From: a virus
Strand: one strand, 5' to 3'
UHGV virus genome: UHGV-1632131
Length of the DNA stretch: 25,098 nucleotides
How positions within the stretch are numbered: position 1 is the stretch's first letter; every line of letters begins with the position of its first letter. Of this stretch, positions 19,407 to 21,923 are shown piece by piece. Position numbers and translations under genes: made by a program. The notes under the pieces are model-generated. The model did not search any database, had not been told where the DNA came from, and worked only from the letters and a program-made list of their open reading frames with translations.

Positions 19407-19612
19407 GTAATGCACCTATGCGGATGTGGCCTTGCATTGTGTCTTGAAAGAATGGGGTAAGGCCGGGGATATCCCCAGGGGGAGGCACCCCCGCCGCAAC
19501 GAACAGCCACAGACGGCAGTCGAGTGATGGAAACGTGCAAAGACTTTAAACCTCGTTACGGCTGGCGTGGCAAACGCGACAACCGAGACAGAGCGGTGAC
19601 GGGCGGAGAGAG

Positions 19613-19742
19613 TGCCGCATCAAGAAAGAAGCCGACTTGTGATCCCTTTCTGCGGGCATTTGAAAGTGGATCCAGCTCAGGCAGTCGGCTTCTTTCTTGT
19701 GTGAGATGTAGCGTATTTGCCCATCTCCGGGTGGGCTTTTTT
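19613..19742 (+). ncRNA. candidate small RNA: 16-bp perfect hairpin plus intrinsic terminator
   Basis: AAGAAAGAAGCCGACT (19621-19636) pairs perfectly with AGTCGGCTTCTTTCTT (19682-19697); inner GATCC/GGATC sub-stem in the loop; terminator GCCCA-TCTCCGGG-TGGGC (19718-19735) plus T7 (19736-19742). The 5' end is not defined. Confidence 0.45.
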
Positions 19743-19923
19743 TCAGTGTTTTCGTCATGGTTAGCGACTTTGCGGCGGTTTAGAAACCGACCATTAAAGT
19801 AAATGCAAACGATGATCTGATGATGGTAGCGGCCTAAGAAGCCTGACGCCACGGGGTATGAGTCGCCCCCCGTCAAGAAATCGACCGCAGAGTTTTCCCG
19901 TCTGTGTATTAAAGAACGGGGAG

Positions 19924-20007
19924 TCATAACAGGTAAGGGCGCTGGTGTGATTAACCAGATGAATGAGAAGGGTCAGGTCTTTCTTGGCAGCGTCCTTATC
20001 TGTTGTG
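19924..20007 (+). ncRNA. long-stem hairpin element E1
   Basis: AACAGGTAAGGGCGCTG (19927-19943) pairs with CAGCGTCCTTATCTGTT (19987-20003): 17 bp with two G-U pairs; 43-nt loop; ends in GTTGTGG. Confidence 0.4.
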
Positions 20008-20204
20008 GCAACTCGCGCAGCAGCCGGTGCTTAACAGCATTTGGACAGTTCCAAACCTAAGCGGGTATATCCCGTCATGCGGAAGGCGCTAACTACGCCG
20101 GAAGCCAGGGTCATGCACTCCCTGTTACCGAATTGCAGCCAGGGCGCGGTGCGCCGAAAAGCATACGAAGGTGGAAGCCCTTGCCGGAGACGTACCCGGT
20201 AATT

Positions 20205-20279
20205 GATGGTGTAGCTCAGCGGTAGAGCAGTTGGCTGTTAACCAACTGGTCGGTGGTTCGAATCCACTCACCATCGCCA
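20205..20279 (+). tRNA. tRNA-Asn (anticodon GTT)
   Basis: Manual cloverleaf: acceptor GATGGTG/CACCATC, D-arm GCTC-AGCGGTA-GAGC, anticodon arm GTTGG-CTGTTAA-CCAAC, T-arm GGTGG-TTCGAAT-CCACT, discriminator G, encoded CCA. Confidence 0.85.
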
Positions 20280-20281
20280 GT

Positions 20282-20357
20282 GCCGATTTAGCTCAGTTGG
20301 TAGAGCGCCTGCCTTGTAAGCAGGATGTCAGCGGTTCGAGTCCGTTAATCGGCACCA
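20282..20357 (+). tRNA. tRNA-Thr (anticodon TGT)
   Basis: Acceptor GCCGATT/AATCGGC, D-arm GCTC-AGTTGGTA-GAGC, anticodon arm CCTGC-CTTGTAA-GCAGG, T-arm AGCGG-TTCGAGT-CCGTT, discriminator A, encoded CCA; begins 3 nt after tRNA-Asn. Confidence 0.85.
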
Positions 20358-20445
20358 ACACAACAGGTAAGGGTATTTTGCGACGTCGGAGATCGCCGTG
20401 CTTGGCAGAGGGTTCGAATCCCTACGAAGTACCCTTACCGTTGTG
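20358..20445 (+). ncRNA. long-stem hairpin element E2 with an internal T-arm-like motif
   Basis: Starts immediately after the CCA of tRNA-Thr. CACAAC-[bulged A]-GGTAAGGGTA (20359-20375) pairs with TACCCTTACC-GTTGTG (20430-20445); the loop contains GGGTTCGAATCCC (20410-20422), a canonical T-stem-loop. Confidence 0.45.
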
Positions 20446-20582
20446 ATGAAGTGCAGCTCTTAGAAGCAACCAGAAGATAAGCATCTGGCTTCACAACATA
20501 AACCGCAGGAACGACCAATAAACGGTAGCCCGTATGGAGAACACCCCGTTGAGGAAGAGACCTGGCCGGAACCGTAACCGGC

Positions 20583-20678
20583 ACTACAACGTTGAGAACA
20601 CTGTCGTAACGGGGTCATATCCCAATTTACGAATAAATGTTGCGTTGCAGCGTGACAACCAGTGTTCTCAACATTGTG
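20583..20678 (+). ncRNA. long-stem hairpin element E3 (divergent arms, same architecture)
   Basis: CTACAACGTTGAGAACACTG (20583-20602) pairs with CAGTGTTCTCAACATTGTGG (20659-20678): 20 bp with one C-A and one G-U; the loop contains GGGGTCATATCCC (20610-20622); followed by the small hairpin GCACA-GGCTGA-TGTGC (20684-20699). Confidence 0.45.
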
Positions 20679-20858
20679 GTGAATGCACAGGCTGATGTGC
20701 CGCAACTACAGTAGTGCGCGCTTTGCGGGGCTTGCTACAACCCTGTGTCGGAGTTCAGCACCGACCATCACAGTTTGATTCTCTGGCATGAGCATAACGC
20801 TGAAATAAGTCCAGTCTGGTGCGGCCCGATCACCCGCCGTTAGCTCCACGAAACGGAG

Positions 20859-20936
20859 CGCACAACAGGTAAGAGCATTGAGCCGATAATCGTGAAGAGT
20901 CGGCGAGCCTGGTTAGCCAATGCTCTTTCCGTTGTG
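20859..20936 (+). ncRNA. long-stem hairpin element E4
   Basis: CACAAC-[bulged A]-GGTAAGAGCATTG (20860-20879) pairs with CAATGCTCTTTCC-GTTGTG (20917-20935); followed by the small hairpin GCGCA-GACTGA-TGCGC (20942-20957), which covaries with the one after E3. Confidence 0.45.
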
Positions 20937-21076
20937 GTTGATGCGCAGACTGATGCGCGGAAAGAAATGCCCCAGCGACACACGAGGCGAGTTCACACAC
21001 TGCAATGCAGTCAGTAGCCGGGGTCGCTAAGCCGGAGATCAGTACCGGTAACCACAACAATTGGAGAGTAGGGAGC

Positions 21077-21208
21077 ATGGTGCTCAAGCTGTCCGTGCTG
21101 GTGGATTTCACCAGCACAATCCTGTCGGTTTTATCGGACGGGGCGTTGGTGGCAGTAGCCGTAACATTGGTATGGCCGATATTTAAAATAGCTTCGAAGG
21201 ATCAGTGA
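21077..21208 (+). CDS. candidate small hydrophobic membrane peptide (43 aa)
   Basis: ATG at 21077 inside track ORF 21005..21208, with GGAGAG 8 nt upstream; MVLKLSVLVDFTSTILSVLSDGALVAVAVTLVWPIFKIASKDQ is largely one transmembrane helix; stop overlaps the next start (TGATG). Confidence 0.35.
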   Translation: MVLKLSVLVDFTSTILSVLSDGALVAVAVTLVWPIFKIASKDQ

Positions 21209-21312
21209 TGGGATTCTGGGATTTTGCTGACAAGTATCCAATTGTTCTCATTATTATTGTTGCCATAGTTGTAGGCGGCATTGTTAGCGCCATTGAAGCA
21301 CTTAGTAAATAG
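21208..21312 (+). CDS. candidate small hydrophobic membrane peptide (34 aa), absent from the ORF track
   Basis: ATG at 21208 with AAGGA Shine-Dalgarno 7 nt upstream (21196-21200); MGFWDFADKYPIVLIIIVAIVVGGIVSAIEALSK; TAG stop at 21310-21312, 6 nt before tRNA-Ile2. Confidence 0.4.
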   Translation: MGFWDFADKYPIVLIIIVAIVVGGIVSAIEALSK

Positions 21313-21318
21313 TAATCC

Positions 21319-21394
21319 GGCCCCTTAGCTCAGTGGTTAGAGCTGGCGACTCATAATCGCACGGTCATCGGTTCAAGTCCGGTAGGGGCCACCA
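21319..21394 (+). tRNA. tRNA-Ile2 (anticodon CAT, lysidine-type) or less likely tRNA-Met
   Basis: Acceptor GGCCCCT/AGGGGCC, D-arm GCTC-AGTGGTTA-GAGC, anticodon loop CTCATAA, T-arm ATCGG-TTCAAGT-CCGGT, discriminator A, CCA. The body closely resembles E. coli ileX-type tRNA as I recall it (GGCCCCUUAGCUCAGUGG ... CUCAUAAUCGC ... GGUUCAAGUCC ... AGGGGCCACCA). Confidence 0.8.
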
Positions 21395-21436
21395 TATTTG
21401 GTTGTAACACGGCGTATGGCACATGCGTCGATAGCG

Positions 21437-21545
21437 GTCTGGTGTAGCTGTTAGGTACCTTTTACTAACACTGTATGGGCACATCAGGTAGCCGGAATGT
21501 GCAAGCCCCGTTCATATCGTCGGACCGAGGACTCACCATCCTGGC
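21437..21545 (+). other. degenerate tRNA-like remnant (possible tRNA-Asn-derived pseudogene)
   Basis: Carries TGGTGTAGCT (matching the 5' acceptor/D region of the window's tRNA-Asn) and CTCACCATC (matching its 3' acceptor region), but the intervening approx. 80 nt do not form a canonical cloverleaf. Confidence 0.25.
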
Positions 21546-21575
21546 GATTCGGTGTGACAGCCGGAAGAGCACGGC

Positions 21576-21686
21576 ACATAACAGGTAAGGGTGTTTGATT
21601 AGCGCGTCATTATCGCTTGCGAAGTAGAGTCATCATCGAAAAGCAGCCCTTGACGGTCGATGCAATGAACATCCTTACCGTTGTGG
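21576..21686 (+). ncRNA. long-stem hairpin element E5
   Basis: CATAAC-[bulged A]-GGTAAGGGTG (21576-21594) pairs with CATCCTTACC-GTTGTG (21670-21685); 74-nt loop; 3' flank GTTGTGG-TAATTGCGG as in E0, E3 and E4. Confidence 0.4.
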
Positions 21687-21923
21687 TAATTGCGGCTATG
21701 CGCACGTGACGAAGCCATTTTCTTCAACTTTTTTGTATAAACAAAATCGTTCTGGTAAGTGTCGTCGCCAGGGGTGGCTGTCCTGGCAGGTGGAGGCACC
21801 ACCGCCACAACCCTATCTCAACCCATCATATAGTCGCTAAGGCTGTATCTCATACTAATACGAAACAAGACACACACTACCGGGTATCCGGGGAATAGTT
21901 ACGTCTGTAGGAAAGGAGAGGTT

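Follow-up and report, generated by a model that had tools for sequence, protein, structure and literature searches.

The two GC-rich hairpins found towards either end of the tRNA-containing locus of the viral genome UHGV-1632131 (a stretch of 25,098 nucleotides, hereafter the window) are two copies of a known kind of phage RNA. Each hairpin is the last helix (P5) of a multi-hairpin RNA module of 100-130 nt, and the sequence GCC(G/A)CAAC that follows it is the 3' strand of a closing helix (P1). These two modules, named here alpha modules A and B, are diverged members of a superfamily that includes Rfam RF02076 STnc100 and PasD. From 5' to 3', the module is organized as P1, a 3-nt AAU junction, P2, a variable P3, P4, a single A, P5 and the 3' strand of P1. 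P1 pairs GUUGYGGU(G) with (C)RCCRCAAC and encloses the four hairpins. P2 has 5-6 bp and a U-N-N-G-C loop, P4 is variable in sequence, and the 5-bp P5, with its AGGCA loop, directly abuts the 3' strand of P1. With moderate confidence, we favour the view that the modules are co-transcribed, compactly folded stable RNA domains of the STnc100/PasD superfamily.

The modules and their parts are given below in window positions. In the labels used for related loci, L001 is Escherichia phage D6, L002 is phage P1, L004 is Klebsiella phage ST147-VIM1phi7.2 and L025 is an IMG/VR prophage contig.

19401-19500, + strand: alpha module A, a complete STnc100-like module; D6 orthologue at L001 1580-1679
Module A, 5' part, + strand: P1 5' strand 19401-19408; P2 19412-19427 (UAUGC loop); P3 19428-19464
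Module A, 3' part, + strand: P4 19465-19476 (GGGGAUAUCCCC); P5 19478-19492 (GGGGG/AGGCA/CCCCC); P1 3' strand 19493-19500 (GCCGCAAC)
21680-21811, + strand: alpha module B; D6 orthologue at L001 4375-4489
Module B, 5' part, + strand: P1 5' strand 21680-21687; P2 21691-21704; P3 21708-21766
Module B, 3' part, + strand: P4 21767-21787 (GCCAGG...CCUGGC); P5 21789-21803 (GGUGG-AGGCA-CCACC); P1 3' strand 21804-21811 (GCCACAAC)

The initial annotation had described the two hairpins with their identical AGGCA loop and GCC(G/A)CAAC tail, each preceded by another GC-rich hairpin and by the word GGTAAG, and both elements are present within 1-2 bases of where it had placed them. The upstream hairpin of copy A, GGGGATATCCCC, occupies 19465-19476, one base off the 19464-19475 reported initially. 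The compensatory stem change from G-C to U-A between the two copies is borne out by the sequence. A scan of both strands of the window for any 5-bp stem with an ARGCA loop returned just copies A and B, each followed by GCCRCAAC, and the 20-nt pattern GGAGGCACCNNNNCCRCAAC (up to two mismatches) occurs at two sites versus 0.01 expected from 100 shuffles. The preceding GC-rich hairpin does belong to the motif, being the conserved helix P4. By contrast, GGTAAG (19456-19461 in copy A and 21754-21759 in copy B, + strand) is not part of it, relatives reading AAGTGT or GGTGTA at that position. Six of its ten + strand sites in the window fall in the locus because four of these belong to a family of long hairpins, CACAAC-A-GGTAAGGG...CCCTTACC-GTTGTG. 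What had been overlooked is that the GCCRCAAC tail is a helix strand, whose partner GTTGYGG lies upstream at 19401-19408 and 21680-21687, and that more divergent relatives of the module are located within the locus.

The minimum free energy fold of module A corresponds exactly to the layout given above (-48.2 kcal/mol, z = -3.1), and none of 200 shuffles folded as well. Module B adopts the same layout (-51.1 kcal/mol, z = -3.5, 0/200 shuffles as good) and retains P1 when folded jointly with the hairpin upstream of it. P1 and the junction read GUUGCGGU-AAU / GCCGCAAC in module A and GUUGUGGU-AAUU / GCCACAAC in module B. The P2 loop is UAUGC in both copies on different stems, GCACC/GG(A)UGU and GCGGC/GC(A)CGU. 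With R1, a covariance model built from 37 representatives of the family, module A scores 64.5 bits (E ~1e-13) and module B 78.4 bits. By analogy with the beta subtype described below, the P2 loop (..UGC..) of alpha modules may contact the P5 loop (..GCA), both loops being invariant and thus uninformative for covariation.

The conservation of this fold was assessed on relatives recovered by a DNA pattern scan of IMG/VR with GGAGGCACC-N4-5-CYRCAAC, in which the three outer pairs of the P5 stem were left free. Among the matches listed, all of these free positions were paired to give the full 5-bp stem in 116/129, and the exact complement of the 7-nt tail was found 77-112 nt upstream of the hairpin in 59 of the 80 instances with full flanks versus downstream in just one of the 80, which identifies the tail as the 3' strand of P1. 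The module was found in over 100 instances in phage contigs and in many genera of Enterobacterales. In a genome search, the 19-nt core (P5 and the start of the tail) was present in Escherichia, Shigella, Salmonella, Klebsiella, Raoultella and Enterobacter, as well as in Kosakonia, Pantoea, Erwinia, Rahnella, Serratia and others, often as two to three tandem copies. Across 37 non-redundant members, 94.7% of the cells of P1, P2 and P5 are paired, versus 31-51% when the 3' partners are slid by one to three columns, and seven pairs change on both sides. One position of P1 is U-A in 26 members, C-G in eight and U-G in two; another is G-C in 32, A-U in three and G-U in two. Three P2 pairs covary, with C-G, G-C, A-U and U-A all seen, and P5 stems covary as GGGGG, GGUGG, CCUGG, CCGGG and CUGGG. 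These counts are lowered rather than raised by one gap that MAFFT misplaced in the P5 3' strand of GGUGG-type copies. G-U pairs are frequent (13/37 at P1 columns 8/142 and 11/37 in P2), and therefore the constraint acts on the + strand RNA and not on DNA. Together with the covariation, this supports the initial proposal of a repeated structured RNA motif on that strand.

RNAalifold recovered P1, P2 and P5 unaided from 118 model-aligned sequences, with compensatory changes in 7 of 11 pairs. Regarding P4, a single base separates P5 from the end of a helix of at least 5 bp in 62/73 unique members, the sequence of this helix being highly diverse (GCCGG/CCGGC, GGUUCUGUG/CGCAGGGUC, GAACC/GGUUC, GUCAUG/CAUGAC and others). 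Altogether, covariation supports P1, P2, P4 and P5.

The link with STnc100 comes from relatives that both models recognize. The Rfam STnc100 model matches the same element in the IMG/VR loci L025, L119, L045, L049 and L012, including five copies in L025 alone (67-78 bits), and its consensus displays the same helices followed by an intrinsic terminator (model positions 165-206). Conversely, R1 detected a module between the Q and holin genes of phage HK639 (44810-44923, 63.7 bits) that was absent from its training set, and the same site is STnc100 according to Rfam (52.6 bits, above the 47-bit gathering threshold). The copies linked to tciA in D6 and P1 match the STnc100 core only, below threshold but significantly (39.6 bits, E = 4e-5 and 33.4 bits, E = 1.5e-3, respectively). 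The resemblance extends to the GGUG/CACC closing helix, the GAAU junction, P2 with its U-N-N-G-C loop, the penultimate variable hairpin and the CCGGG-AGGCA-CCCGG hairpin of STnc100 that runs into CACC, as well as to the hosts and the mobile-element context. The window copies differ from STnc100 by their P5 stem (GGGGG or GGUGG, followed by a single G instead of CA) and their P2 stem (GCGGC or GCACC type), and by being embedded, with no terminator or promoter-like site detected next to them, in an array of tRNAs and hairpins. At the gathering threshold, copies of the L006, L018, L078, L079 and L081 types were also missed by Rfam, whose model captures one branch of the superfamily.

Eleven transcribed STnc100 copies have been reported in enterohaemorrhagic E. 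coli EDL933, one of them verified by Northern blot, and discrete RNAs of ~200 nt of this family are detected in lysogens (PMC5331693). Sigma-factor binding has been described at STnc100 promoters in Salmonella LT2 (PMC10794520), and one copy is located 75 nt downstream of stx2 (PMC12370729). PasD1 and PasD2 are prophage small RNAs of enteropathogenic E. coli, abundant in Hfq RIL-seq data, that sit in lambdoid prophage regions near Q and are reported to be structural homologues of STnc100 with a common origin (bioRxiv 10.64898/2026.05.13.724894). The link of the present modules to PasD is based on its published description, and PasD differs in having its own terminator and in being described as an Hfq-dependent trans regulator. 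All these reports call the function unresolved (PMC5331693, PMC10794520, PMC12370729, bioRxiv 10.64898/2026.05.13.724894).

A large set of lambdoid-like prophage contigs carries the module 3' of a cI-like repressor gene and in its orientation, 5' of conserved early genes (phrog_204, phrog_210 and a 5'-nucleotidase gene). The order in L018 is cI, a terminator, a PL-like promoter, a hairpin, a module of a second subtype (beta, see below), a hairpin, an alpha module, a terminator, a hairpin and the first open reading frame (ORF). The tandem copies of L025 resemble individual small-RNA genes, each with a strong terminator and a promoter-like site of its own. Among 92 unique copies, a terminator-like hairpin was detected within 150 nt on the 3' side in 58, 37 of them within 40 nt, by a crude scan that missed at least the terminator of the L006 type. 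L025 is by itself an unusually dense small-RNA gene array, with five STnc100 copies at 4349-5513 and 8357-8555. Four of the five share a 1.2-kb stretch, spaced by roughly 250-430 nt. A scanned terminator is present in at least three copies of the array and a promoter-like TTGAAT-N17-TAGCTT in some, and an isrI-family RNA (5220-5316) is interleaved.

How such modules would operate in the window can be proposed from these settings. The whole array would be transcribed as one leader from an upstream promoter, and each module would fold into a compact domain through stacking of P5 on P1 and contact between the conserved loops of P2 and P5. The modules would then persist in the leader or be released as stable structured RNAs, and would act like their prophage relatives, which are abundant non-coding RNAs, some of them Hfq-bound.

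Several observations weigh against this account of the modules as stable domains of the STnc100/PasD superfamily. Since the AGGCA loop, both inner pairs of P5 and most of the tail were prescribed by the pattern used for the search, conservation at these positions is partly circular; still, 23 unique copies outside the pattern, most of them found by the covariance model alone, carry CCGGGAGGCACCCGG and display extra P1 variants such as GUGAUG/CAUCAC and ACUACGGUG/CACCGUAGU. At the window copies, there was no STnc100 match at E <= 10 in search spaces of 3.1 kb or 200-260 nt, nor any Rfam match at the D6 orthologues of modules A and B, and Rfam returned just tRNAs and noise on the window both at the gathering threshold and at E <= 10. 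The terminator scan found no intrinsic terminator within ~40 nt on the 3' side of either window copy. The nearest one after module A is 219 nt downstream. After module B, the ancestral terminator region is reduced to its 5' half, AUCAUAUAGUCGCUAAGGCUG versus AUCAUCUAUUUCUAAGGCUGCC... in L025, as the remnant CUAAGGCUG before the next ORF. P5 itself is not an intrinsic terminator, being followed by GCCRCAAC instead of a U run, and neither P5 site came up in that scan. Likewise, a consensus scan, which is weak evidence, found no promoter-like site adjoining either copy, and the module heads are fused to an upstream hairpin. Canonical members have a terminator 0-40 nt downstream, and tandem copies have their own promoter-like sites; neither was found at the window copies, and therefore the model of independent small-RNA genes is not directly transferable to them. 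Finally, the conserved positions lie in helices and loops without an evident single-stranded seed, and this pattern suits binding to a protein, RNA polymerase or the ribosome, or a role in cis, at least as well as pairing in trans.

The initial annotation had also suggested that the two copies, lying near the entry and exit of the locus, may mark transcript boundaries or processing sites, a role that individual modules might have. The bracketing by A and B is incidental, and the idea of a functional pair is not supported. D6 has three alpha copies, one in the leader (L001 1580-1679), one upstream of tciA (3195-3319) and one upstream of a gene for a Tad2-like protein (4375-4489), an arrangement also seen in D6-related IMG/VR contigs, and the rest of the D6 genome is without copies. 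P1 has a single alpha copy, mid-locus and upstream of tciA (L002 3724-3847), and further modules lie between A and B in the window. The window has no middle alpha copy because of a deletion that removed the 3' part of a tRNA-Ser gene, a hairpin, the alpha copy, tciA and the start of tciB. At the deletion junction (21050-21110, compared with L001 2990-3090 and 3789-3850), the first ~34 nt of tRNA-Ser(UGA), GGAGAGTAGGGAGCATGGTGCTCAAGC, are fused to the interior of tciB. Owing to this fusion, the 67-aa ORF at 21005-21208 is a chimera with a DUF3927/TciB C-terminal part. A Chi sequence, GCTGGTGG, is present at 21095-21102, 8 nt from the junction.

The modules located between A and B belong to the beta subtype, which shares the head (GUUGUGGUGAAU/GUUGUGGUUGAU) and tail of alpha modules and matches no Rfam family.

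20674-20774, + strand: beta module C; head AUUGUGGUGAAU; P2 GCACA-GGCUGA-UGUGC; P5' GUCGG-AGUUCAGCA-CCGAC; tail CAUCACAG
20931-21059, + strand: beta module D; P1 GUUGUGGUU/AACCACAAC; P2 GCGCA-GACUGA-UGCGC; P5' GCCGG-AGAUCAGUA-CCGGU
20440-20499, + strand: tentative mini-module E; P1 GUUGUGA/UCACAAC enclosing CCAGA-AGAUAAGCA-UCUGG; weak fold (z = -1.1)

Module C is a weak R1 match (21.1 bits, E = 0.005) with a P1 orthologue at L002 3463-3564. Its fold shows P1, P2 and a P5' abutting P1 without being significant (z = -0.9), and the fold of module D gives the layout listed above (z = -2.3). Other beta modules are found at L001 2851-2996 and L018 4616-4717 (- strand). In this subtype, the loops of P2 (GRCUGA) and of the last hairpin (AG(A/U)UCAG(C/U)A) are complementary to each other: GCUGA faces UCAGC in module C, and ACUGAU of P2 is the exact complement of AUCAGU of P5' in module D. 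The variable loop-loop pair is G-C in P1, L018, L063, L064 and L070, A-U in module D and L088, and G-U in D6. Such complementary loops with interchangeable pairs suggest a loop-loop (kissing-loop) contact in beta modules.

Modules and tRNAs are separated by long hairpins of the form CACAAC-A-GGUAAGGG...CCCUUACC-GUUGUG (z -3.8 to -7.6), whose basal strands repeat the tail and head sequences of the modules. Therefore, the head GUUGYGG has two possible partners, one upstream that makes it the base of a hairpin and one downstream that makes it part of P1.

19329-19414, + strand: long hairpin H0, an inverted repeat with stem UAAGGAGG with CUCCUUAA; its 3' strand ends with GUUGCGG, the head of module A
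19925-20008, + strand: long hairpin H1, of the H5 family; fold of -44.7 kcal/mol, z = -7.6
20359-20446, + strand: long hairpin H2, directly after tRNA-Thr, with T-arm-like GGUUCGAAUCC inside; z = -5.3; repeat families D1, D3 and D6
20582-20681, + strand: long hairpin H3, ACAACGUUGAGAACACUG...CAGUGUUCUCAACAUUGUGG, an inverted repeat with 22-nt arms, 91% complementary; shares the head of module C
20861-20937, + strand: long hairpin H4; fold z = -3.8; shares the head of module D
21577-21687, + strand: long hairpin H5, CAUAAC-A-GGUAAGGG...CCUUACC-GUUGUGG; repeat families D1 and D3; GUUGUGG also serves module B as its head

In context folds, the head of module A is contested between H0 and P1, and the inner stem of H5 stacks on P1 of module B. 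Judging from the sequence, processing may take place at the stems shared by hairpins and modules. H0 pairs a perfect Shine-Dalgarno sequence, UAAGGAGG, with CUCCUUAA, and the tciA-linked modules of P1 and D6 carry in P3 the word CUCCUUA, which we take to match the 3' end of 16S rRNA (D6 reads AAUCCUCCUUAG). These elements may act as a Shine-Dalgarno/anti-Shine-Dalgarno decoy or as a masking element. The interior of H2 contains a perfect T-arm-like sequence, GGTTCGAATCC, 78 nt after the T arm of tRNA-Thr, which is itself 78 nt after that of tRNA-Asn; H2 has the appearance of a third tRNA that degenerated and became a hairpin, and is not called by ARAGORN. H4 has a homologue in a Klebsiella lambdoid prophage (L004 ~3075-3150), within the leader of the late operon. 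Besides this homologue, the region 2930-3230 of L004, between a DUF1133 gene and the lysis genes, contains a mini-module, GUUGUGGUGAAU...CACCACAG (R1 score of 21 bits), and a 3' fragment resembling a tRNA. P1-like and lambdoid late leaders therefore have the system of hairpins and modules in common.

The window is a P1-like phage-plasmid. Its closest sequenced phage is D6 (~91% identity over the locus), and the E. coli plasmid NZ_CP091837 is 99.7% identical to the queried part 21570-21930. The region 19000-21920 is the counterpart of the non-coding, tRNA-rich leader of P1, from the C1-controlled Pban onward, which contains a 'dicF-like region' with its terminator, tRNA-Asn, tRNA-Thr, tciA/B/C and tRNA-Ile. 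A search of the literature for the ban operon of P1 in connection with tRNA gave no result. In the RefSeq record of a related plasmid, just tRNAs and coding sequences are annotated in this locus and no non-coding RNA.

19094-19122, + strand: sigma-70 promoter-like site CTAACA-17-TATAAT (consensus scan 10/12), candidate start of the locus transcript
19719-19745, + strand: intrinsic terminator GCCCAUCUCCGGGUGGGC + U7, counterpart of the terminator that ends the P1 'dicF-like region'
20205-20357, + strand: tRNA-Asn(GUU) and tRNA-Thr(UGU) (ARAGORN, Rfam), co-oriented with the modules
21319-21394, + strand: tRNA with anticodon CAU, annotated as Ile in P1 and RefSeq
21924-22499, + strand: first ORF after module B, with a Tad2-like (Thoeris anti-defence) domain (Pfam PF11195, E = 6.9e-11)

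Close lambdoid relatives of module B (L018) are immediately followed by a terminator similar to that at 19719-19745. The ~200 nt between module A and the latter may be an insertion. This interval (19501-19745) contains a perfect 17-bp inverted repeat, 19621-19637 / 19683-19699, and P1 carries a different 'dicF-like' sequence in its place. The first tRNA (20205-20279) is Asn(GUU) according to ARAGORN, P1 and D6, and its RefSeq counterpart in the related plasmid (L248 2298-2374) is annotated as tRNA-Arg. The distance from tRNA-Thr to the CAU tRNA is ~500 nt in that plasmid versus ~960 nt in the window, and the interior of the locus therefore differs between close relatives. Downstream of the locus, the gene order is Tad2-like gene, hypothetical gene, lpa (PF25716 for Lpa) and pacA, as in the RefSeq record of the 99.7% identical plasmid. 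The 454-aa ORF at 23391-24755 was considered as Ban and rejected, since it is PacA; the locus thus precedes the Tad2-like, hypothetical, lpa and pacA genes and not ban. In the Tad2-like ORF (191 aa), the domain is limited to residues 103-190 and the N-terminal ~100 residues are without Pfam match; used as a query, this protein retrieved a single IMG/VR locus. Upstream, the 2280-aa ORF at 8875-15717 is presumably DarB-like from D6 synteny and size, which, with the Tad2-like gene, would place the RNA locus among anti-defence genes.

Different functions can be envisioned for such modules. As punctuation of the transcript, they would direct cleavage, by RNase III at stems of at least 20 bp or by RNase P or RNase E at a tRNA-like P1/P5 stack, and would then stay as protective 5' or 3' structures on the tRNAs, the tciA mRNA and the Tad2-like mRNA. 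This role is unlikely but conceivable in a locus where modules stand among tRNAs and alternate with very stable long hairpins (z -3.8 to -7.6) whose basal strands CACAAC/GUUGUG are the tails and heads of the modules, and where terminator-less copies are located 31-113 nt upstream of start codons (tciA in P1 and D6, the Tad2-like gene in the window and D6). The helix order is also that of a class II tRNA (closing stem, arm, arm, extra arm, and an arm running into the 3' strand), and the contact between the loops of the first and last arms is supported in beta modules. Structured phage RNAs resembling tRNAs are known, such as C4 of P1 and P7 and CI of P4. However, the modules have 5-nt instead of 7-11-nt loops, no anticodon-like arm and no 3' RCCA end; ARAGORN and the Rfam tRNA model find three true tRNAs only, and the Rfam C4 model gave no match. 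Furthermore, punctuation would be needless for most family members, which stand alone with their own terminator. That the elements act at the DNA level, as conserved linkers at mosaic-module boundaries or as palindromic protein-binding sites, is hardly credible. Copies do lie at junctions of exchangeable cassettes (tciA, the Tad2-like gene, tRNAs) and the sequence between copies differs among P1, D6 and the window; yet compensatory changes keep four helices paired despite sequence change, many of the G-U pairs would become A-C mismatches if read on the opposite strand, and all copies are co-oriented with the flanking genes. The compensatory changes and G-U pairs therefore make a DNA-level role unlikely. 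Known self-cleaving ribozymes were dropped as candidates for lack of Rfam matches; integron attC-like sites, MITEs, late-promoter Lpa boxes and C1 operators were likewise considered and dropped since no defining features were found, the aimed tests being limited to Rfam.

Roles in cis on transcription can be considered as well. It seems quite unlikely to us that the modules are antiterminators like put of HK022, the nascent module binding RNA polymerase to allow read-through of leader terminators into the tRNA, anti-defence and lpa/pacA genes. Such RNAs are located just 3' of early promoters in temperate phages without N, and lambdoid contigs without an N-like gene there hold modules in the equivalent nutL/putL position, between the cI-proximal PL-like promoter and the first early gene, with terminators in the leader. 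Similarly, module A stands between the promoter-like site at 19094-19122 and the strong terminator at 19719-19745, most family members are directly upstream of a terminator, and the conserved loops and junction would suit a fixed host target. However, put RNAs are ~70 nt long with two stem-loops (PMC9378689), unlike the four hairpins closed by a helix of the present module. No sequence or structure resemblance was found to HK022 putL/putR or to the putL-like RNA of HK639, and the motif is absent from both. Moreover, the HK639 copy lies in the late region between Q and the lysis genes, where antitermination would be expected from Q, the leader of P1 ban has the same terminator without an upstream module, and copies without a following terminator exist (upstream of tciA; module B). 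The tandem lambdoid copies rather resemble separate promoter-to-terminator units, and lysogens contain discrete ~200-nt RNAs (PMC5331693). A riboswitch-like attenuator, in which the P1-closed junction would be the aptamer of a ligand or factor controlling the terminator directly downstream, is very unlikely. A closed junction followed by an intrinsic terminator 0-40 nt later is typical of transcriptional riboswitches, and the junction and loop nucleotides are highly conserved. Nevertheless, no alternative pairing was found between the P1 3' strand and the terminator, no terminator adjoins the window copies, tandem arrays with as many as five units do not point to metabolite sensing, and the family is reported as discrete, abundant and Hfq-associated RNAs (PMC5331693; bioRxiv 10.64898/2026.05.13.724894).

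To conclude, the finding of a hairpin pair is in itself of modest significance, the pair being explained by two copies of a known kind of RNA. Among the non-coding RNA genes that prophages bring to pathogenic E. coli and Salmonella, those of the STnc100/PasD type rank with the most numerous, and this work provides grounds for widening the STnc100 family model. It identifies their conserved core as a helix-closed, four-hairpin module with covariation. It also extends the family beyond the Rfam model to terminator-less copies in P1/D6-like phage-plasmids and to a beta subtype with complementary loops, and it places modules in the leader that precedes tRNA, anti-defence and late-activator genes. 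As a more speculative and rather improbable extension, alpha and beta modules might form one class of tRNA-shaped cis-acting phage RNAs (a closing stem, four arms and a loop-loop elbow), for example a put-like processive antiterminator that gates read-through. If so, transcription starting at a repressor-controlled early promoter would pass the leader terminators under this control to reach the tRNA, anti-defence (Tad2-like, tciA) and lpa genes, and the gating would constitute a new RNA-based early-to-late switch common to P1/D6-like phage-plasmids and N-less lambdoid prophages.

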